From a virus (taxonomy: Duplodnaviria > Heunggongvirae > Uroviricota > Caudoviricetes), in the IMG/VR virus record IMGVR_UViG_2563366923_000002, positions 1-7,940 of that record: a stretch of DNA of 7,940 nt, one strand, 5' to 3'. Shown one piece after another: positions 1 through 7,940 of the stretch. The notes beneath the pieces are model-generated. The model searched no databases and was not told the origin of the DNA. It saw only the letters and a program-made list of their open reading frames with translations. The position numbers and the translations under genes were made by a program. Positions within the stretch are counted from its first letter, which is position 1; each line of letters opens with the position of its first letter.

Positions 1-1152
1 ATGCTCACCGTTAAGCAGATTGAAGCAGCAAAGCCGAAAGAAAAACCATACCGCCTTCTCGATGGTAATGGCCTGTACCTTTATGTTCCTGTATCCGGGA
101 AAAAGGTATGGCAGCTTCGCTACAAGATTGACGGTAAGGAGAAAATCCTGACCGTCGGAAAATATCCGCTTATGACTTTGCAGGAAGCAAGGGATAAGGC
201 ATGGACTGCGAGGAAAGACATCTCGGTTGGCATCGATCCGGTAAAGGCGAAAAAGGCTTCGTCTAACAACAATTCATTTAGTGCGATTTACAAGGAATGG
301 TACGAGCACAAGAAGCAAGTCTGGTCAGTAGGCTATGCAACTGAACTTGCAAAAATGTTTGATGACGACATTTTACCTATCATCGGCGGCCTTGAAATTC
401 AGGATATTGAGCCGATGCAACTGCTGGAAGTAATCCGCAGATTTGAAGATCGCGGTGCAATGGAACGAGCCAACAAAGCACGCAGAAGATGCGGCGAGGT
501 TTTCCGTTACGCTATTGTCACCGGTAGGGCTAAATATAACCCGGCACCTGACCTTGCTGACGCCATGAAGGGATACCGCAAGAAGAACTTCCCGTTTTTA
601 CCTGCCGACCAGATCCCAGCATTCAATAAAGCACTGGCAACATTTTCAGGAAGTATCGTATCGCTTATTGCGACTAAAGTTTTACGCTACACAGCCCTCA
701 GAACAAAAGAGCTTCGTTCCATGCTATGGAAGAACGTCGATTTTGAAAACAGGATTATCACCATCGACGCCAGTGTGATGAAGGGCCGCAAGATTCATGT
801 AGTACCGATGTCAGACCAGGTGATTGAACTTCTCACTACGCTAAGCTCAATCACTAAACCAGTGTCAGAGTTTGTTTTTGCCGGGCGCAACGATAAGAAG
901 AAGCCAATCTGCGAGAACGCGGTATTGCTTGTGATCAAACAAATTGGCTATGAAGGGCTGGAAAGCGGTCACGGATTCAGGCATGAATTCAGCACGATTA
1001 TGAACGAGCACGAATGGCCTGCTGATGCTATTGAAGTGCAACTGGCACATGCCAACGGCGGATCTGTGCGCGGTATTTACAACCATGCGCAGTATCTCGA
1101 TAAGCGCAGGGAGATGATGCAGTGGTGGGCGGACTGGATTGATGGGAAATGA
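1..1152 (+). CDS. intS: Phage integrase, P4-family tyrosine recombinase (383 aa)
   Basis: N-terminus MLTVKQIEAAKPKEKPYRLLDGNGLYLYV is the arm-binding domain signature of P4-like integrases. The C-terminal catalytic region has R (LRTKELR), HGFRHEF and the tyrosine in VRGIYNHAQY. The translation matches E. coli prophage integrase IntS as I recall it (memory, not a search). Stop TGA at 1150-1152. Confidence 0.93.
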   Translation: MLTVKQIEAAKPKEKPYRLLDGNGLYLYVPVSGKKVWQLRYKIDGKEKILTVGKYPLMTLQEARDKAWTARKDISVGIDPVKAKKASSNNNSFSAIYKEWYEHKKQVWSVGYATELAKMFDDDILPIIGGLEIQDIEPMQLLEVIRRFEDRGAMERANKARRRCGEVFRYAIVTGRAKYNPAPDLADAMKGYRKKNFPFLPADQIPAFNKALATFSGSIVSLIATKVLRYTALRTKELRSMLWKNVDFENRIITIDASVMKGRKIHVVPMSDQVIELLTTLSSITKPVSEFVFAGRNDKKKPICENAVLLVIKQIGYEGLESGHGFRHEFSTIMNEHEWPADAIEVQLAHANGGSVRGIYNHAQYLDKRREMMQWWADWIDGK

Positions 1153-1177: not shown

Positions 1178-1236
1178 TGCGCGCTTTTCACTCAACTTTA
1201 TTTCCACACTATAAAAACACAGAATCATAAGGAAAA

Positions 1237-1266
1237 TTTGGAGGTATCTACAAAACTTGATAATAT
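1237..1266 (+). promoter_or_regulatory. Possible sigma70-type promoter for the acyltransferase gene (TTGGAG, 17-bp spacer, TAATAT)
   Basis: Hexamers read by eye about 45 bp upstream of the ATG at 1308. Both are imperfect matches to consensus; no experimental basis. Confidence 0.2.
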
Positions 1267-1307
1267 CGTGACATTTTCACAAACAGAGCAACAGGATAGT
1301 AGCCAAG

Positions 1308-2372
1308 ATGAAATCTAGCACCAAACAAGATGTAGGGATACAATATTTAAGGGGGGTATCTGCTTTATATGTCGTATTTTTCCATTTTAGAGAGTTTTTA
1401 GATAATTTTTTGCCAATAGCTATGTTGGGTCAAAAATTTTTTAGCAATGGCGCTTTCGGTGTTGATATGTTTTTTATAATTAGCGGATATATTATTTCTC
1501 TTTCAACAGAAAAAAAAGACAACTCAATTGTTAAGGGATATATCATAAAAAGATTTTTCAGAATATATCCTGCTTATTTCATAGCACTCTCTATTTTGAT
1601 TATTTTATCCCCAATAAAATATTCTCACCATGATATTTTACGTTCATTTATGATGATCCACCCTGATTATCAATATAATGCACCTTACTTTGGCTATGGT
1701 GTACTATTTACAGCATGGACATTAACATACGAGATATATTTTTATATAATATTTCTAATAGGTATGTTTTTCTCACACAAACATCGCATTATATTTACAT
1801 CAACAATTGCAATATTTGCTATGATATCAATACAGCTTATTTTCAACAAATCAATAAACATTTTCCATCAGGAACAAATTAAAAATGGCGCGGGGATATT
1901 GAATGTCCCAGGAAATATAATGGTTATAGACTTTATATATGGAATGTTTATTTATAAGATTAGAAATCATTTAAAATTAAATAAATATTCTATCGCAATA
2001 TCATTTTTACTTATATCAATTGGATTTATAACAATACAATCAGGAGTAAACGCTGGGCATGGTCCACTGCAATACGGGCTTTACTCCCTAATGATTGTTC
2101 TAGGGGTTGTTATGTACGAGAAAAATAACAAAATTACCGAGATTAAGCCATTGGTTTTTCTTGGAGATATCTCATACTCAGTTTATTTGTATCATGTGAT
2201 AATTGCTACATGTGCATATTCACTCCTATTAAAAATAGGATTTTCAGGATTATCTATGTTCTCTATGATGACAGTTTTATCAATATTTCTTGCGTATATT
2301 TCATATGTTTTAATTGAAGTTCCATCAGTTAAGGTAGGGCATTTAATGTTAAAAAAACAAACGAAAGGTTAA
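1308..2372 (+). CDS. Acyltransferase family 3 integral membrane protein, likely O-antigen/LPS O-acetyltransferase (lysogenic conversion, Oac-like), 354 aa
   Basis: The N-terminal segment IQYLRGVSALYVVFFHF carries the conserved Arg and His arrangement of the first transmembrane helix of acyltransferase-3 enzymes. The whole protein is strongly hydrophobic with many predicted helices. Its position between int and tailspike matches the oac position in Sf6-type phages. Codon usage is extremely AT-rich. Confidence 0.85.
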   Translation: MKSSTKQDVGIQYLRGVSALYVVFFHFREFLDNFLPIAMLGQKFFSNGAFGVDMFFIISGYIISLSTEKKDNSIVKGYIIKRFFRIYPAYFIALSILIILSPIKYSHHDILRSFMMIHPDYQYNAPYFGYGVLFTAWTLTYEIYFYIIFLIGMFFSHKHRIIFTSTIAIFAMISIQLIFNKSINIFHQEQIKNGAGILNVPGNIMVIDFIYGMFIYKIRNHLKLNKYSIAISFLLISIGFITIQSGVNAGHGPLQYGLYSLMIVLGVVMYEKNNKITEIKPLVFLGDISYSVYLYHVIIATCAYSLLLKIGFSGLSMFSMMTVLSIFLAYISYVLIEVPSVKVGHLMLKKQTKG

Positions 2373-2448
2373 ATATTAAAAATGTTCTTCATGGACAATA
2401 GTAAAATACCACCTCCTGAGGAGTTTGTTTAGGGATAACAATAAAAAT

Positions 2449-2475
2449 AGGCATCCAAAATGAATGCCTTTTTTA
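2449..2475. terminator. Bidirectional rho-independent terminator between the convergent acyltransferase and tailspike genes
   Basis: An A-rich tract (AATAAAAATA), a stem of about 6 bp (AGGCAT/ATGCCT, 2449-2454 and 2464-2469) with a 9-nt loop, then a T run (2470-2474). It sits exactly between the two convergent stop codons (2372 and 2476) and reads as hairpin plus U-tract on either strand. Confidence 0.5.
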
Positions 2476-3744
2476 TTACTGAATAAGATAAGCAAAAAAG
2501 CTACAGGCCACTTCGCCAGAAGTGTTGTCTCTTACTATTTTTATAGTATTATCGACGACGCCTGCTGAAATATTTGTTGCAACATCAGTTGATGTCGCAA
2601 TCACACCAATAGACGATGTATTTTGAATTGATTTTATTGTTAGAGGAATTTGTACTGATGCAGATCCATCGGGAATGATAATTATTCCTGTTTGTTTATC
2701 TGGATGGCTTGGTGAATCATTATTTATGAGCCTGCAGTTTGTTGGGCCTACGCTCGCCCCTCCATTAATGACTGTATTATATAGATATGCACTAGCACCA
2801 CCACCTGCATTATCAAAAATGGAAATATCTGCCACCCTGCCACTAGTAAGAGTGCAATTAATTACCCTTACATTCGTTACTGAGTTGACAAGAAGATCCC
2901 CGATTTGTTCATCTACGAGGTTGTTATTTTGGATGATGCAATTGTTTAGAGTTACATTAGAAGGTGAAAATATGTTCTTTGTTATTTCCACCCCCCATTT
3001 TCTACTGTCTGAAAATGTAGAACCAACAGCGGTAAACATATCACTTGAGCCTTCAATAATTGCACAAGATGATGTTGAAGAGTTAGATGAAAAATACCCA
3101 CCAACCAACGTTGCTTGTTTACTGTCCTTTACTCTTAGAGCAGGACCAGTAGCAAGATCTGACATAACGTCAATCAACCATGTCCAAGCCACCCCATCAA
3201 TATCTATTGCTGATAGACCAGCGTCTTCGTAACCGCATGAATAAAATAATTCACCATGCAACTTAAGCCCCTCTGTAATTGTTGAGACATCTTTTTTTTC
3301 ACATCTAGCATAAAACCCGGAATAACAATCTGAGTATGTATTCATAAGCATTCTTGAGTTTATTTGCCCGCCTTCAAATCTTATGCCCCAACTGCTAGCT
3401 GCAAACCTGTTATGTCTAATATCAAGCTCAGCTGCAGAATACCCTGATGGTGAATATATGCATGAGTTTAAAAAAGAAAATGAACACTCTTCTATCGTAA
3501 TAAGAGGACTCTTAATTAGAAAGCCAACACAATTACTTCCACTCTTTCCATATTTTGATGTAATGTTTAACCCATAAAATCGACTAAACTCAGAACCTTT
3601 TAATAAAATAAAGCAAGCATCTCCGTTTTTTAATGGCTCAATTACACTAAGTTTTTTAGAATCTCCATAAATACAAACCACGCTGTCTATTTCAATATTA
3701 GAAATGTAATACGGTAGGTTATTTCCTGGAACATAAATTTTTTT
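2476..3744 (-). CDS. Tailspike, C-terminal receptor-binding segment (right-handed beta-helix, putative O-antigen depolymerase); reading frame is -1 relative to the head-binding segment
   Basis: The ORF frame is open back to a TAA at 3748-3750. Read through the A7 tract, the junction gives ...[43 protein letters not shown]..., the DFGA...AIQ...YVPxG motif typical of pectate-lyase-like beta-helix proteins. The rest is rich in Asn/Ser/Thr/Gly repeats typical of beta-helix tailspikes. AT-rich like the adjacent acyltransferase. Stop TAA at 2476-2478. Confidence 0.75.
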
Positions 3745-4298
3745 GTTTTAGAGCTATCACTCTTAATGGCTTGTATGGCCGAATTAAATGCAGCGCTACA
3801 ATCAGTTCCAGGGATGGCTCCAAAATCAGTTATGCTAATAATCTCTTCATTTTTATCATGTTGTGTAGTGGTTATAGATCCGTCATGCGGCTGCTTTACG
3901 AAAACAACGTGATCATTAACAAGACCTGTTAATGTATCTGATTGTAGTTCACGTTTCAGCATATCAGGGTCATACTTCAGCACATTCGGAAAATAGAACT
4001 GCTGCGAACCGTACGCATCATAAACAGCCATAGAATGGCCTTGCACAGTTACGAACTTGGCAATCTGTCCGTTATATACGGGGTAACCTGCAGCGTTAAT
4101 GATGATTGGTTGCGATACAGGAACGTGAGAGCCGTCTTCGTTCTCTACATAAACCTGAATCTGGTTTTCAGAATTTACCGGGTCAGTGTCAATTTTACCG
4201 ATATAAATTTTGCCATTGGCTACGGCTTTAAAAGAACGAGCCATAGTGAAGAGTTGCGAAGGCATGCTGACCACAACATTTGCGGTGATATCTGACAT
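3687..4298 (-). CDS. Tailspike, N-terminal head-binding domain segment (P22 gp9-like); terminates prematurely at TAG 3687-3689 after the frame break
   Basis: Translation from the ATG at 4296-4298 gives [42 protein letters not shown]...[17 protein letters not shown]...NVLKYDPD, a close match to the P22 tailspike N-terminus as recalled from memory ([42 protein letters not shown]...). GGAG lies 6-7 nt upstream of this ATG. The ORF-track start at 4346 adds 16 unlikely leader residues. Confidence 0.9.
3738..3744 (-). other. A7 homopolymer (coding strand A AAA AAA) where the tailspike reading frame breaks; candidate -1 ribosomal frameshift or slipped-strand site, or a sequencing or decay indel
   Basis: The upstream frame reads ...ACA AAA AAA TTT ATG... 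(TKKFM) and stops 17 codons later. The downstream frame reads AAA AAA ATT TAT GTT (KKIYV) and continues for about 420 codons. One extra A or a -1 slip fuses them. Confidence 0.6.
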
Positions 4299-4323
4299 TT
4301 CATTGCTCCAGACGAATGATATG

Positions 4324-4346
4324 ATGCAACCATGATGTGATTGCAT
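4324..4346. promoter_or_regulatory. Palindrome ATGCAA-N11-TTGCAT (extended imperfect 21-bp dyad TGCAACCATGATGTGATTGCA) in the divergent mnt/tailspike control region; candidate repressor operator
   Basis: Inverted repeat read directly from the sequence, 26-48 bp upstream of the tailspike ATG and upstream of the Mnt-like gene. P22 Mnt is known to bind a palindromic operator, but this sequence is not the P22 operator as I remember it. Confidence 0.3.
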
Positions 4347-4419
4347 ACCGAAATGGTACTATTGAGTATTTATCCAGTAGGTTACGATGCCATTCCACCC
4401 AACTGGTGAGGCATCAAGG

Positions 4420-4680
4420 ATGTACAGCAAATACGACGAGGCGCAGTTTCACTTGAGACTTCCGCATGAACTCCACGCGAAAATTAAGCAGCGTGCGAAG
4501 ATGAATAACAGGTCGCTGAACTCAGAGATAATTGCAGCGATTGAGGAATCATTGGATAAACAAAGCTCTGCATCAGTTTACATTGACGATGCAGAGCGTA
4601 TGGCAGAACAACAATCTGATATGGTTAAGAAAATTGTCTTTGATACGCTCAAGAAGCTATATAAAAAAGACAGCAGATAA
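4420..4680 (+). CDS. mnt: Mnt-like ribbon-helix-helix transcriptional repressor (Arc/MetJ superfamily)
   Basis: FHLRLPHELHAKIKQRAKMNNRSLNSEIIAAIEESL and DAERMAEQQSDMVKKIVFDTLKKLYKK align with P22 Mnt (FNFRMPMEVREKLKFRAEANGRSMNSELLQIVQDAL ... DAERLADEQSELVKKMVFDTLKDLYKK, from memory). The ORF is open from the ATG at 4387; the ATG at 4420 (MYSKYDEAQFHLRLP) fits the Mnt alignment better. Either start is possible. Confidence 0.85.
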   Translation: MYSKYDEAQFHLRLPHELHAKIKQRAKMNNRSLNSEIIAAIEESLDKQSSASVYIDDAERMAEQQSDMVKKIVFDTLKKLYKKDSR

Positions 4681-4700
4681 CCATCCGTTACGGAGGATTT

Positions 4701-4778
4701 ATGCACAGAGATATGCTGAATATTGCGTTCTACATATTTGGTTTTTACACGTTCCTGGTGTTTGCGAAGCTATTCTGA
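4701..4778 (+). CDS. Hypothetical 25-aa hydrophobic peptide (MHRDMLNIAFYIFGFYTFLVFAKLF), possible small single-pass membrane protein
   Basis: GGAGG at 4692-4696 lies 4 nt before the ATG, 21 nt downstream of the mnt stop on the same strand. The peptide has a charged N-terminus followed by an 18-residue hydrophobic stretch. It is too short for the ORF track and has no homology support. Confidence 0.3.
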   Translation: MHRDMLNIAFYIFGFYTFLVFAKLF

Positions 4779-6479
4779 CAGCGCATCAGACTTAGCCCCC
4801 TGAGTCAGGGCGTTAATGGCCTTTTGTGCCTGCTGCATGGCTTTCTCGAACGCTGTTGATCCGCGTGGGGTGTTTGCCATTCGGAGCATTGCATTTCTGA
4901 ATGGCTCGCTCTCATAGGCGCGAGTAAGAAGTCCGTAGCTTACCGCTGCGCCAGTTGTCGCAGGGTTCATTGCCGTCCCATACCCGATAATGAACGGGAT
5001 GGTTTGCTGCCCTGTTGGTGTTGTTACTGCCGCTTTTGCAGCCTGCTGCGTGGATTGCAGGTAGTTTTTCAATCCTTTCAGATAAGCAGCGTCCTGCCCC
5101 TTAAATGTGATGCCAGTCTGGTTTTGCAGGATGTTAAGCTGCCGAAGGAACTGGTCAGGGGATCCGCCAGATTTCTCCATCGCCTTTCCAATGATGCCAT
5201 TGCGCATTTGCGCCCTGCCAACACGACCAACTGAGTTATACAGCGTCTTAATTTCCGATTTGTTCTTGCTGAATAGCATGTTGTTGACAACTTCCGGCGT
5301 CAGATCGCCTTTCATGAGAACATTCTTCAGCCTGGTATTCTTTAGTTTCGCGGCTTCGTCAGCGTAGACGGCATTGGCCTGCTGATATTTACGGAGAGTA
5401 ATAGCACCGCCAGCCAGCACACCAACGCCTAAATCGGTGGCGAGTGCTTCCGCATCATCTTTCGCACTGTTTGCAGCAAGTGATCCAACTGCGTTTTCTG
5501 CTAGAAGGCGAGTTGCCCCCTGAGCAATTCGACCAGCAAGTGTTGGTGACTGTGTTGCCGCTCTCTCAACGCCAGCAGGAGTGAGGTAAGGCAATGCTTC
5601 AGCAAATACCCTTCCCTCTGTCGTTTGTGGAGTCAGCGCGCCTTGCTGAAGGCCAAAGTCCTGCTCTAATCCCTGCGTTGTTACTCGTGGTGCTGGTTGA
5701 TATGTACCATCGCCAATGCCGAGTTTACCTCCAGCCCAAGCCGCCGCGCTTGTTACAGCATCAGTGAGTTCAGCAGGTATGTTCGCTACGTTGATTCCTG
5801 CCTGTAGTAAGCCGCGCCCGGTTTCAGCAAGTCCATTACCAAGGTCAGACATTATTCCGCCTTGCTGCTGAACAGGTTTCGGTGCGACAGAACTTACGGG
5901 TTGAGGTGGCTGCTGACTGGCTGCCTGCTGCTCAATCTGAGCAAATGGATTATTTGGGTCTGACTGCACGCCTGATGCCGATACTTGTTCGGATGACTGT
6001 GCTTCCAGTTGTGCAAACGGGTTGTTAGGGTCTTGCTGAGGATGTACCTTTGCAGAGGTGGCGCGCTGTTCGACTGTTGAGTCTGTCACCGGGTCACCCG
6101 CCCATTGAGCAAAGCGATCATCAACGTAACCGCGGCCTTCAGGTCCTAGCGTATATTCACCACGCTTTGCCTTCATAACGTTGCCGGGACCGTCGTGATA
6201 AGCCTGAAGAGCGTCACGCCAGTTACCAAACTGCTGGTACATCTTTGCCAGATAGCGCGCGCCAGCGTCAGCCTGATATTCGGGGTTTTGCATTTGCTCA
6301 TCGGTATAACCCATATCACGCCATGTCCCAGGCATGACCTGAGTCAATCCTACAGCCCCGGCGGAGCTTACTGCGGCAGGGTTGTAAGAAGACTCCTTGG
6401 CACCCAGTGCAGTCATCAACCCTTCTGGCACACCGTAACGTGCGCCAGCCTGCTCTAACAAATCACGGTAATTAGCCAT
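4770..6479 (-). CDS. Virion internal/ejection-type protein with N-terminal lytic transglycosylase (SLT) domain, 569 aa
   Basis: GAKESSYNPAAVSSAGAVGLTQVMPGTW is the classic SLT motif (catalytic Glu in ES, then S...GA.GL.Q). No signal peptide. It is followed by a Q/P/S-rich linker with a duplicated DPNNPFAQ(L/I)E motif and an Ala/Gly-rich C-terminal region. Its ATG (6477-6479) abuts the TAA stop (6480-6482) of the upstream gene. Confidence 0.8.
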   Translation of the reverse strand: MANYRDLLEQAGARYGVPEGLMTALGAKESSYNPAAVSSAGAVGLTQVMPGTWRDMGYTDEQMQNPEYQADAGARYLAKMYQQFGNWRDALQAYHDGPGNVMKAKRGEYTLGPEGRGYVDDRFAQWAGDPVTDSTVEQRATSAKVHPQQDPNNPFAQLEAQSSEQVSASGVQSDPNNPFAQIEQQAASQQPPQPVSSVAPKPVQQQGGIMSDLGNGLAETGRGLLQAGINVANIPAELTDAVTSAAAWAGGKLGIGDGTYQPAPRVTTQGLEQDFGLQQGALTPQTTEGRVFAEALPYLTPAGVERAATQSPTLAGRIAQGATRLLAENAVGSLAANSAKDDAEALATDLGVGVLAGGAITLRKYQQANAVYADEAAKLKNTRLKNVLMKGDLTPEVVNNMLFSKNKSEIKTLYNSVGRVGRAQMRNGIIGKAMEKSGGSPDQFLRQLNILQNQTGITFKGQDAAYLKGLKNYLQSTQQAAKAAVTTPTGQQTIPFIIGYGTAMNPATTGAAVSYGLLTRAYESEPFRNAMLRMANTPRGSTAFEKAMQQAQKAINALTQGAKSDALSE

Positions 6480-7484
6480 TTACTGCCCCAAAGATGGAAG
6501 ATATCCGTAGCGATTAATGAAGTCGATTGACAGCTCGGGGTGCTGCTTCAGGTAATCTATAGAAGCCTGAGGCGCTTCCACTCGCTTGATACCGTTTTGC
6601 TGAACGTACTTACCAACCGCCTCATTACGCTTCTGGTTGAGCGTGTTCAGGATGACGCCAGCGTTGCGACGAAAGGACTCCTCGCTCTGCGAGTTCTGCA
6701 GCGAACCAACAGCCTGGTCGAGCTTTTTGCCCTCGGCATCAGAAAGTGCGCCCATGCCTCGCATGGCCTGAACCGCTGTCAGGTATGCTTGTGATTTAAA
6801 GGTATCAAGTCGTGCCTGAGTGTCTGCAGCCTGTGAGCCTGGAACGTTGGGGATTACTCCACGTAAGCCTGTAATGCTCTTAAGTGAAGGAGAACTAACG
6901 ATATCGTTCAGAGTGAACATGCTGGTTGTGATGGTGTTGATGCCGTCTTTGTAGCCATCATTTAGCGCTTGCTGCTTCTGCTGCAACTGCTGGTTGTTGG
7001 CTGCTATGCGGCTCTGTATTTCCTGGCGCTTCAGGTCGTTAGTTTCTGCTGATAGCATCCGGTCAAGGCGCTTATTTTCGTTGTTAATGCGGTTTGTTTC
7101 TGCGTCCAGGTTAATGCGCTGCTGACCTAAATTCGCCTGGATATCTTGTCCGCGCATTGTGATTGCCTGATTCCGAGCGGCGGTTTGCGAATCCAGATCC
7201 TGACCGCGCATGGTAACCTGTCGACCCTGCATTTTATCCTGTAGGTCAAAGTATTTTTCGGGCCCGAGACTGTTCATCCCCAGGTGATCGACAAATTCGC
7301 CGAACTGCCGCGGGTTCTGTTGGTACATCTGAGCGACGTCATGAGGATTAACGCCAACACGAGCTAACTCACCGGCGTTGTTTTGCAGCCATGATTGCAT
7401 TGCTTCTGGAGAAGATGACGCAAGACGTGCGCCAGCCGCTAATGTACCGATAGAATTACGCTGGTCTTCATCAATGAATCCCAT
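6480..7484 (-). CDS. Putative virion/ejection protein, Gln/Asn-rich with coiled-coil-like repeats, 334 aa; start uncertain, possibly 5'-truncated
   Basis: Long ORF tightly coupled to the downstream SLT gene. Contains a tandem peptide repeat (VTMRGQDLDSQTAARNQ / AITMRGQDIQANLGQQR). The ATG at 7484 has only AGG one nt upstream, and the frame stays open a further 24 codons to a stop at 7557-7559 with no alternative start. Confidence 0.6.
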   Translation of the reverse strand: MGFIDEDQRNSIGTLAAGARLASSSPEAMQSWLQNNAGELARVGVNPHDVAQMYQQNPRQFGEFVDHLGMNSLGPEKYFDLQDKMQGRQVTMRGQDLDSQTAARNQAITMRGQDIQANLGQQRINLDAETNRINNENKRLDRMLSAETNDLKRQEIQSRIAANNQQLQQKQQALNDGYKDGINTITTSMFTLNDIVSSPSLKSITGLRGVIPNVPGSQAADTQARLDTFKSQAYLTAVQAMRGMGALSDAEGKKLDQAVGSLQNSQSEESFRRNAGVILNTLNQKRNEAVGKYVQQNGIKRVEAPQASIDYLKQHPELSIDFINRYGYLPSLGQ

Positions 7485-7606
7485 GCCTTTACGAACGGAT
7501 TCAATCTGGTCTGGATATTGAGTATACCCCTCCGAATGAGACTCAACAAGCTGGAGCTAGACTACCAGCCACCACACCACCAAAGCTAACTGACAGGAGA
7601 ATCCAG

Positions 7607-7692
7607 ATGGATGCACAAACACGCCGCCGCGAACGTCGCGCAGAGAAACAGGCTCAATGGAAAGCAGCAAATCCCCTGTTGGTTGGGGTACT
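7607..7692 (+). pseudogene. N: 5' fragment of a lambda-type N antiterminator gene (arginine-rich boxB-binding peptide), diverging after about codon 28
   Basis: AGGAG at 7595-7599 with 7-nt spacing to the ATG at 7607. Translation MDAQTRRRERRAEKQAQWKAANPLLVGV equals the N-terminus of phage lambda N as I recall it, then continues as unrelated LIQYQRENALCVMQMWCPRTRKTN with a stop at 7763-7765. No nutL boxB hairpin found upstream. Confidence 0.7.
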
Positions 7693-7712
7693 CATTCAGT
7701 ATCAGAGGGAAA

Positions 7713-7940
7713 ATGCGCTATGTGTCATGCAAATGTGGTGCCCAAGGACCAGAAAAACGAACTAAATCTGAAGCGATTTCTTCATGGAATAGTCGAATGA
7801 AAGTATGGGTTTATGATCCAGAAACCATATTAAACGCTGAAGAGCGCAGGAGAACGGAAGTCTATATTCATAACCTTAATGAAGATGGATTTACACCAGT
7901 GCTTGTAAAGGCTACTCCGCAGGAGGTTACCGGCGTGTAA
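7713..7940 (+). CDS. Small protein with Lar-like (restriction alleviation family) C-terminal motif, 75 aa from the ATG at 7713; possibly a truncated or degenerate family member
   Basis: VSCKCGAQGPEKRTKSEAISSWNSR resembles the second zinc-knuckle and C-terminal region of Lar-family proteins (C..CGA.GP...EAI.AWN.R, recalled consensus), but the first CPFCG knuckle is absent. AGAGGG lies 4-5 nt before the ATG. The ORF-track version starts at 7611 and overlaps the N fragment in another frame, so that upstream part is probably not real. Stop TAA at 7938-7940. Confidence 0.4.
   Translation: MRYVSCKCGAQGPEKRTKSEAISSWNSRMKVWVYDPETILNAEERRRTEVYIHNLNEDGFTPVLVKATPQEVTGV

Follow-up and report, generated by a model that had tools for sequence, protein, structure and literature searches.

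The window, as we call the whole 7,940-nt stretch of DNA analyzed here, carries an mnt repressor gene transcribed divergently from a tailspike gene (Table 1). The gene lies between homologs of P22 genes 16 and 9 and is read against the late operon, whose final gene ahead of the mnt cassette is the gene-16-type ejection gene. At 99.95% identity, the window matches a prophage remnant beside tRNA-Arg/yfdC in E. coli O19:H7 730V1. An IS5 insertion in 730V1 is absent from the window, a 1-nt deletion at 3737/3738 frameshifts the window tailspike relative to the intact 607-aa gene of 730V1, and a further deletion relative to that strain fuses gene 20, near 7523, with the N/Lar region. The window lacks genes for the head, terminase and late regulators and is therefore a decayed, defective prophage. 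In such a remnant, late transcription is not expected at all.

Table 1. Genes and sequence features of the window, with the strand where one applies and the basis of each assignment.
Feature	Position	Strand	Basis or remark
P4-type integrase	1-1152	+	ORF list and Pfam scan
Acyl_transf_3 O-antigen acetylase-like gene, AT-rich	1308-2372	+	ORF list and Pfam scan
Tailspike: P22-type head-binding domain and AT-rich receptor-binding part	2476-4298	-	ORF list, Pfam, comparison with 730V1
Extended -10-like element TGATATGAT	4317-4325	+	PWM 8.2 bits; window leader class only
Dyad ATGCAA-N11-TTGCAT, extended ATGCAACCA-N5-TGATTGCAT	4324-4346		Class-specific tailspike leader at a mosaic junction
Predicted Mnt operator CATACCGAAATGGTACT, CATACC-N5-GGTAC (core ATACC-N5-GGTAC, 4345-4359)	4344-4360		Alignment to P22 immI
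Candidate Pmnt-like promoter TTGAGT-15-TACGAT	4362-4388	+	PWM scans; -35 starts 2 nt past the operator core
Putative decayed ant promoter remnant ATGGCA-17-AATACT	4365-4393	-	8/12, 5.0 bits; faces operator and tailspike
Conserved inverted repeat GATGCC-N18-GGCATC	4386-4415	+	Overlaps Pmnt -10 and mnt Shine-Dalgarno
mnt Shine-Dalgarno GAGG	4407-4410	+	Conserved
mnt, 86-aa Mnt-family repressor	4420-4680	+	Pfam, PDB matches, PGAP
Unannotated 25-codon hydrophobic ORF MHRDMLNIAFYIFGFYTFLVFAKLF	4701-4778	+	Strong Shine-Dalgarno GGAGG; 20 nt past the mnt stop
Gene-16-type ejection protein, SLT lytic transglycosylase domain	4770-6479	-	ORF list, Pfam, 730V1 annotation
Truncated gene-20-type protein	7484 to 6480	-	ORF list and Pfam scan
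Lar-like ORF	7611-7940	+	ORF list and Pfam scan

The 86-aa product is a clear homolog of the Mnt repressor, and both of its domains are recognizable. Residues 7–49 match the Pfam Arc family (PF03869, E = 7.5e-15), the ribbon-helix-helix DNA-binding domain, and residues 57–82 match Repressor_Mnt (PF11423, E = 8.9e-15), the C-terminal tetramerisation coiled coil. The structure of the P22 Mnt N-terminal domain (PDB 1MNT) matches residues 6–78 with E = 7.6e-19, and that of the Mnt tetramerisation domain (1QEY) matches with E = 4.4e-8. An earlier sequence-only reading of this DNA had recognized an Mnt homolog opposite the tailspike start, and these matches bear it out. An in-frame ATG upstream, at 4387, would yield a 97-aa alternative product. 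We prefer the start at 4420, which agrees with how the protein aligns to P22 Mnt, with PGAP and with the conserved GAGG; PGAP gives the same coordinates in 730V1, and the counterpart of the 4387 ATG is out of frame in the class represented by the LF82 prophage Gally. The label “partition protein ATPase”, widespread on these proteins in RefSeq, is wrong.

mnt evolves under purifying selection. Across 56 window-class alleles pN/pS is 0.2, and within the N-terminal domain it is 0.13 between the window and the JEP4/VSe13 type (20/27 synonymous versus 11/117 non-synonymous differences). Synonymous sites are near saturation between mnt classes, and the reading frame is unbroken in more than 150 loci. 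Selection of this kind implies some function beyond self-control. The 25-codon ORF downstream is open in 78 loci, Sf6 and Gally included, and its variants comprise 14 synonymous and 15 non-synonymous changes; it has no PHROG match and is probably co-transcribed with mnt.

The remainder of the P22 immunity-I region is missing. By tblastn, nothing in the window matches Arc of P22, the Arc-like protein of JEP4, Ant, Rha or KilA. No Rfam family, sar among them, reached E ≤ 1 in 3900–5000, and no intrinsic terminator was found around mnt in 4150–4900. Only 121 bp separate mnt from the tailspike, or 88 bp from the longer mnt start. The earlier observation that arc and ant are missing beside mnt holds on both counts. 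Arc, ant, sar and a strong Pant, which together with mnt would make a complete immI region (mnt-arc-ant-sar), are all lacking; mnt is kept, adjoining the 5' end of the tailspike. The locus is most likely a P22-family immunity-I region reduced to mnt alone, the “ant moron”, in its usual place between the gene-16 and gene-9 homologs.

This layout is common among P22-like phages and prophages of E. coli and Shigella, and it is already in the literature. Villafane et al. coined “ant moron” for the hypervariable region in 2008, when mnt-only morons of ST64T, ST104 and Para1 were described (PMC2629481), and an mnt-only ant moron was reported for phage L in 2021 (PMC8022706). Sf101 and IME10 are two phages with the cassette of the window, spacer included, and among 5426 complete E. 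coli genomes 253 carry at least 80% of 4200–4700. Other mnt alleles occupy the same place, again with arc and ant absent, in ST160/SE1, ST64T/L, Gally, JEP4, VSe13 and the Proteus phage Brookers. In a survey of 167 loci, window-class mnt adjoins the tailspike wherever the flank suffices: 75 have the window order of tailspike, mnt, 25-codon ORF and gene 16, and about 50 have an arc-like/Rha/KilA operon with a LexA-like repressor beyond mnt and convergent with it. The sequence-only reading had singled out the orphan mnt beside a tailspike; these counts and the published morons show that it is no oddity. The outcome it had named against itself, that homologous prophages would prove the locus a scar of arc-ant loss with an unrelated operator, is essentially what the comparison returned.

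Alignment to the annotated P22 immI region locates the operator. P22 Omnt with the first bases of the Pmnt -35, AGGTCCACCGTGGACCT-ATTGAG, aligns to CATACCGAAATGGTACT-ATTGAG at 4344–4366 of the window. This alignment, which the sequence-only reading had suggested making, places the Omnt homolog at 4344–4360 and not at the palindrome flagged there. On this evidence 4344–4360 is the positional homolog of Omnt and the predicted Mnt operator. It comprises two half-sites within about 17 bp just upstream of the Pmnt -35, the arrangement that characterizes the Mnt family at sequence level, and the half-site centers keep the 9-bp spacing of P22 Omnt. The window copy is only partly symmetric (ATACC versus GTACC; 4–5 of 8 positions per half); symmetry is perfect in a divergent subclass with GTACC-N5-GGTAC.

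Conservation of this element follows mnt. Its half-sites are constant in nine diverged spacers, while the center varies (GAAAT, GAAAC, AAAAT, GAGAC, TAAAT, TAAAC) and the left flank alternates between unrelated sequences. The motif occurs singly at the operator position in 154 of 167 loci, and its only two other occurrences in 1.1 Mb are chance hits inside tailspike bodies. Apart from those two, no second copy was found near ant-like genes, in the rest of the 38.7-kb Sf101 genome, which has one copy, or elsewhere in the 167 loci. The distance from operator to mnt ATG is 59–63 nt, and the TTG of the -35 stands at +2 in 142 of 142 loci. The distance to the tailspike ATG is 46, 55–61, 184, 337–342 or 570–653 nt, the long gaps containing HNH endonuclease genes or AT-rich inserts. 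By these spacings, the predicted operator is rigidly coupled to mnt, not to the tailspike.

Operator sequence covaries with the recognition strand of Mnt over three specificity classes, each with its operator at the same position before ATTG. The strand ARDDPHFNFRMP of P22 and epsilon34 pairs with GGTCCAC-N-GTGGACC. The strand GRDDPQFNLRLP of L/ST64T, ST160 and Gally pairs with AGACCAC-N-GTGGTCT. The strand YSKYDEAQFHLRL, found in the window, Sf101, IME10, JEP4, VSe13 and about 150 IMG/VR loci, pairs with (A/G)TACC-N5-GGTAC, where P22 has its own, different operator. In the window protein the strand reads Q-F-H-L-R-L, and its P22 counterpart reads H-F-N-F-R-M. The DNA contacts of P22 Mnt we take, after Knight and Sauer, to be Arg2, His6, Asn8 and Arg10. 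Three of these four residues differ in the window, which has Tyr/Lys, Gln, His and Arg at the aligned positions.

Promoter predictions were made with a position weight matrix (PWM) scan calibrated on P22, where Pant scores 15.4 bits and Pmnt 12.2 bits; the best score of shuffled 220-nt stretches averages 7.4 bits. The Pmnt-like element of the window scores 8/12 and 6.0 bits, no better than shuffled sequence. It is kept in all classes, mostly as TTGNNN-17-TA(C/T/A)GAT, the sister classes having a 17-nt spacer versus 15 nt in the window, and it may function as a promoter. On the opposite strand, where the window retains the 8/12 remnant, P22 and epsilon34 have TTGACA-17-TATATT (11/12) at the same position. 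Classes lacking arc and ant score 3.1–6.2 bits toward the tailspike, every class included, and a separate promoter scan found no minus-strand sigma-70-like site in 4150–4900. Read together, the classes show that loss of arc-ant is always accompanied by decay of the ant promoter, and that selection continues to act on the operator, on Pmnt and on mnt itself.

Two further elements stand out in the spacer. The inverted repeat GATGCC-N18-GGCATC occurs in the YSKYDE and GRDDPQ Mnt classes and is absent from P22, and its changes in three lineages are G.U-compatible on the plus strand only. The extended -10-like element TGATATGAT is not conserved in other leader classes; a start near 4332 from it would, speculatively, put the operator at about +12 to +28. 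The repeat over the -10 and Shine-Dalgarno and the class-specific extended -10 hint at regulation outside an autoregulation model.

The palindrome that the sequence-only reading had proposed as operator does exist. It extends to 9-nt arms, 8/9 complementary, around a 5-nt loop, and it lies within chance. The 121-bp spacer contains 2 perfect 6-nt dyads versus 0.61 expected, a number reached by 14% of shuffles, and a 9-nt inverted repeat with at most one mismatch arises in 8% of spacer shuffles. Natural variants alter its right arm at five positions, uncompensated, and it overlaps the predicted operator by its last three bases only. Leader sequence switches class directly left of CATACC, which puts the dyad on the tailspike-leader side of a mosaic junction.

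The same Mnt DNA-binding domain comes with at least four classes of tailspike leader, and the dyad occurs in one of them alone. The classes are the window leader, with the dyad; the P22 gene-9 leader, with a repeated GCGTGGCTACGG boundary sequence that P22 also has upstream of gene 9; and at least two more, typified by loci L065 and L078. Among 50,697 phage records, the window leader segment occurs in Sf101 and IME10 only. The tailspike leader of Sf6 has the dyad arms at identical spacing (GATGCAACC, 8 nt, ATTGCA), and Sf6 has no mnt; there the arm bases belong to a much stronger hairpin (z = -3.4). A sequence at chance level, polymorphic, missing from four other leader classes with the same Mnt domain and recurring as arms in an mnt-less phage is probably not the Mnt operator.

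Two other roles for the dyad region were considered and set aside. As a structured RNA in the tailspike leader it has fold z-scores of -1.3 (minus strand) and -0.6 (plus strand), and the common C4330T variant, which would turn a minus-strand G.U pair into A-U, is too little to support one. TGTGA at 4336–4340 resembles a CRP half-site; judged by eye, the second half-site is missing.

We favor a self-contained, autoregulated mnt cassette, with the tailspike expressed by late-operon read-through and not by an Mnt switch, and give this reading a probability of roughly 0.6. The cassette would run from operator through weak Pmnt and Shine-Dalgarno to mnt and, probably, the 25-codon ORF. We infer from the sequence comparison that Mnt binds this operator; a tetramer would contact the half-sites (A/G)TACC and GGTAC. 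In P22, such binding turns off the strong ant promoter and so frees the overlapping mnt promoter. With arc, ant and sar gone and the ant promoter decayed, Mnt would be left acting on its own promoter region. The tailspike, as last gene of the late operon, would be reached by read-through across mnt in antisense, and no Mnt-controlled promoter would drive it.

The sign of such autoregulation may go either way. The operator is centered near -43 of Pmnt, a geometry shared with P22. Vershon and colleagues reportedly found in 1987 that P22 Mnt at this position does not repress Pmnt and stimulates it indirectly by shutting off Pant. As a separate observation, a repressor that targets itself alone should not remain under purifying selection, which counts against pure autoregulation. 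The sequence-only reading had let Mnt control a tailspike-proximal promoter, itself, or both. Self-control is plausible; the tailspike promoter fares poorly, its candidate scoring 5.0 bits and the distance from operator to tailspike start ranging over 46–653 nt.

Published expression data from the E. coli LF82 prophage Gally, which has an mnt-only moron adjoining a tailspike, bear on tailspike control. Strand-specific RNA-seq compared macrophages with LB (PMC9928086). In macrophages mnt rose 40-fold and the tailspike about 20-fold, and the injection gene (the gene-16 homolog) remained at background, 3.6–4.2 log2 (PMC9928086). GALLYPH_14, a moron gene upstream in the tailspike direction, was 10–20 times above the tailspike, and deletion of mnt left macrophage survival, the one assay done, unaffected (PMC9928086). 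These levels imply that the tailspike can receive transcription from outside the late operon, and they fit polymerase reading through from a moron promoter better than a tailspike promoter silenced by Mnt. That mnt and tailspike RNAs rise together runs counter to the proposal that Mnt keeps the tailspike silent in the lysogen. Gally belongs to a different specificity class, so its expression data are indirect for the window.

Other explanations would give Mnt a task beyond its own promoter. Tentatively, and at low odds, a second job may be added to the autoregulated cassette and account for the place of mnt and its operator beside the tailspike: Mnt would gate tailspike-bound transcription, either by repressing what is left of a weak promoter or by acting as a roadblock and convergent insulator. 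Separately, the GATGCC-N18-GGCATC fold-back would make only Pmnt-initiated transcripts translatable. If the gating were true, tailspike synthesis would depend on antiterminated late transcription; if the fold-back were, read-through RNAs would be inhibited from translating mnt. Considered separately, a promoter route is unlikely. Here the ant promoter would have been left reading into the tailspike after arc-ant loss, with Mnt repressing it in the lysogen. The geometry permits this, as an arc-ant deletion would fuse Pant/Omnt to the gene-9 leader, and the Pant remnant retains two key -10 bases 4 nt from the operator; the GRDDPQ class has another minus-strand candidate, TTTTGT-16-TAT(T/G)AT. 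The Gally tailspike, transcribed while the upstream injection gene is at background, also points to some local transcription into it, but its rise together with mnt and the higher level of GALLYPH_14 fit read-through. Tailspike-directed candidates moreover score 3–6 bits, below the shuffled mean best and far from a real Pant, they differ in position between classes, and in some relatives the HNH genes or AT-rich inserts intervene over the variable operator-tailspike distance. Rather unlikely, too, is a roadblock or insulator, in which operator-bound Mnt and convergent Pmnt transcription would limit upstream transcription reaching the tailspike from the late operon, moron genes or ant-type operons, and would adjust the amount of tailspike or confine its expression to late transcripts that are antiterminated. 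In practically all of about 165 loci, mnt and its operator do form the edge of the moron nearest the tailspike, regardless of what lies beyond, and in about 50 relatives the convergent arc-like/Rha/KilA operon would otherwise read into the tailspike. History would account for that edge position just as well, as the scar of an arc-ant deletion. Small ribbon-helix-helix tetramers are weak roadblocks, especially against antiterminated polymerase, and the Gally mnt deletion had no phenotype in its one assay.

The remaining alternatives look away from the tailspike altogether. Resident Mnt might act in trans as immunity, repressing, through a copy of the same operator, ant or another target in a phage that superinfects or shares the cell, or else a gene of the host. 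Repression in trans is a known role of Mnt in P22 (PMC2629481), and the purifying selection on mnt would be served by a function beyond self-control. We consider it very unlikely even so: an operator precedes an ant or arc gene in none of the 167 loci encoding the window Mnt class, the ant-type operons of JEP4-like relatives have no second operator and carry their own LexA-like and Arc-like regulators, and Sf101 has its single operator in 38.7 kb. The idea is weakened in that no ant-type target of this Mnt class was found. Locus L144, examined as a possible P22-like arc-ant with window-class Mnt, proved to be merely a Rha C-terminal fragment on a truncated contig. Least probable of all is that mnt is a functionless relic drifting toward loss, a possibility raised by the phage L authors (PMC8022706) and consistent with the window being a decaying prophage remnant. 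Against it stand the intact ORF in more than 150 loci, pN/pS of 0.13–0.2 with synonymous sites near saturation between classes, and invariant operator half-sites.

The autoregulated cassette has close counterparts in known phages. P22 shares with the window the slot between the gene-16 and gene-9 homologs, the orientation of mnt against the late operon, a two-domain Mnt (49% identity), the distances of the operator from the Pmnt -35 and the mnt start, and the CC/GG core of the half-sites; P22 has arc, ant, sar and t-ant, whereas the window has none of them. The morons of L, ST64T, ST104, SE1, ST160 and Gally are built like the window: mnt and the tailspike diverge, the operator and Pmnt are retained, Pant has decayed, and the GATGCC...GGCATC repeat lies over the -10 and Shine-Dalgarno. 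They differ from it in specificity, being of the GRDDPQFNLRLP class with AGACCAC-N-GTGGTCT where the window is of the separate YSKYDEAQFHLRL class within the same architecture. They also keep the P22 gene-9 leader with its GCGTGGCTACGG boundary, unlike the window, and have orf62, Orf64 or lipoprotein genes downstream of mnt in place of the 25-codon ORF.

The closest relatives are Sf101 gp14 and an unannotated IME10 homolog, which share 96–100% protein identity with the window Mnt and an identical spacer, dyad and operator included. Unlike the window, a decayed remnant, both Sf101 and IME10 are complete phages and viable. The annotation of Sf101 gp14 begins at the upstream ATG and gives it the mistaken name “partition protein ATPase”. 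JEP4/VSe13-type relatives have the N-terminal DNA-binding domain, operator and Pmnt position of the window. Their C-terminal domain is swapped (pN/pS 0.57 versus 0.13), their leader is P22-type, and beyond mnt they carry a convergent arc-like/Rha/KilA operon that includes a LexA-like repressor.

As first flagged, the locus matters little: its layout is common, has been described before and occurs unchanged in two sequenced phages. What is new is the prediction of a third specificity pair of Mnt and operator, in which Q-F-H-L-R-L would recognize (A/G)TACC-N5-GGTAC. The pair adds to the classic P22 Mnt system for studying how ribbon-helix-helix proteins recognize DNA, and it can be tested directly. 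Correcting the “partition protein ATPase” label in RefSeq is a useful outcome in itself. Decay of Pant with retention of mnt sharpens the question raised for phage L, the role of an Mnt that has no antirepressor to control.

The 5' end of the tailspike gene looks like a hot spot for insertion. Free-standing HNH endonuclease genes, or an AT-rich stretch of about 340 nt, have entered just past the first 4-5 tailspike codons in loci with the window-type leader between mnt operator and tailspike start (L034, L036 and L045), in loci with the P22-type leader (L098 and L029), and in JEP4 (L006) and L020. The HNH endonucleases inserted near the tailspike start are three different proteins of 164-179 aa. 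Throughout these insertion-bearing loci, the leader and a tailspike stub reading 'MSDIT' or 'MTDI' remain adjacent to mnt. Modules upstream of gene 9 are bordered by a repeated boundary sequence, GC(A/G)TGGCTACGG, and in several classes the junction of mnt operator with tailspike leader lies directly beside it. It can be folded into a hairpin of 7 bp, whose pairing is better, with a G.U, on the tailspike-sense strand.

Sequence elements around mnt and upstream of the tailspike gene (window positions unless P22 is named)
Element	Position	Strand	Remark
Inverted repeat GATGCC-N18-GGCATC	4386-4415		spans both the -10 of Pmnt and the Shine-Dalgarno sequence of mnt
ATGAT/GTGAT pentamers	4316-4341		four copies in two tandem pairs
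Extended -10-like element TGATATGAT	4317-4325	plus	lies among the pentamers
Unannotated hydrophobic ORF, MHRDMLNIAFYIFGFYTFLVFAKLF	4701-4778	plus	25 codons; overlaps the end of gene 16
Boundary sequence GC(A/G)TGGCTACGG	P22 (L005), about 1085-1100 and about 1200-1215		also in the class-ii leaders of JEP4, VSe13, ST160 and Gally

The mnt gene is itself internally mosaic. Comparison of the window copy (4420-4680) with those of JEP4 and a further locus, L004, showed a conserved N-terminal DNA-binding half (pN/pS 0.13) and a C-terminal oligomerisation half that has been swapped in the JEP4/VSe13 class (pN/pS about 0.57). RefSeq (NC_027398, NC_002371, NC_011976, NC_004348 and others) and PHROGs (PHROG 795) give Mnt proteins, that of P22 included, the name 'partition protein ATPase', an erroneous annotation that is now propagating.

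Relatives that share the window's Mnt DNA-binding domain can carry a different immI architecture from that of P22. JEP4, L144 and about 50 IMG/VR loci encode an antirepressor-type operon of arc-like, Rha and KilA genes, paired with a divergent LexA-like S24 repressor. In these loci mnt separates the operon from the tailspike, and the two, operon and mnt, are transcribed towards each other.

Two repeat elements mark the DNA upstream of mnt. The GATGCC inverted repeat is kept in the Mnt classes that lack arc and ant and is absent from P22 and epsilon34; changes to it in three lineages preserve pairing, through G.U, on the mnt-sense strand only. The repeat may fold back and inhibit read-through RNA, limiting translation to transcripts initiated at Pmnt. 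The pentamer array is confined to the window's leader class, which also has a Pmnt spacer shortened to 15 nt.

The hydrophobic ORF downstream of mnt may be a moron encoding a small membrane peptide. Its strong GGAGG ribosome-binding site lies 20 nt past the mnt stop, and the frame stays open in 78 loci, including Gally and the mnt-less Sf6, with 14 synonymous and 15 non-synonymous variants. A PHROG search returned no match for it.

The window is a prophage remnant in decay at the argW/yfdC site. Head genes and late-regulator genes are gone from it, and in 6480-7940 a truncated gene 20 is joined to a fragment of the N/Lar region near 7523. E. coli 730V1 has an intact tailspike of 607 aa; compared with it, the window lacks 1 nt at 3737-3738, which breaks the minus-strand tailspike gene (2476-4298) into an ORF from 4298 to 3687 and another from 3681 to 2476. 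The broken gene is either a pseudogene or the product of a sequencing error. In the sister strain 730V1 the deletion is a different one, and an IS5 separates int from the acetylase gene. Within window positions 1201-4000, GC content is 27-31% in the acetylase gene and 35-39% in the tailspike's receptor-binding part, both far more AT-rich than the rest of the window at about 50% GC. Such composition fits the acetylase and receptor-binding regions being exchanged modules for host range and serotype conversion.
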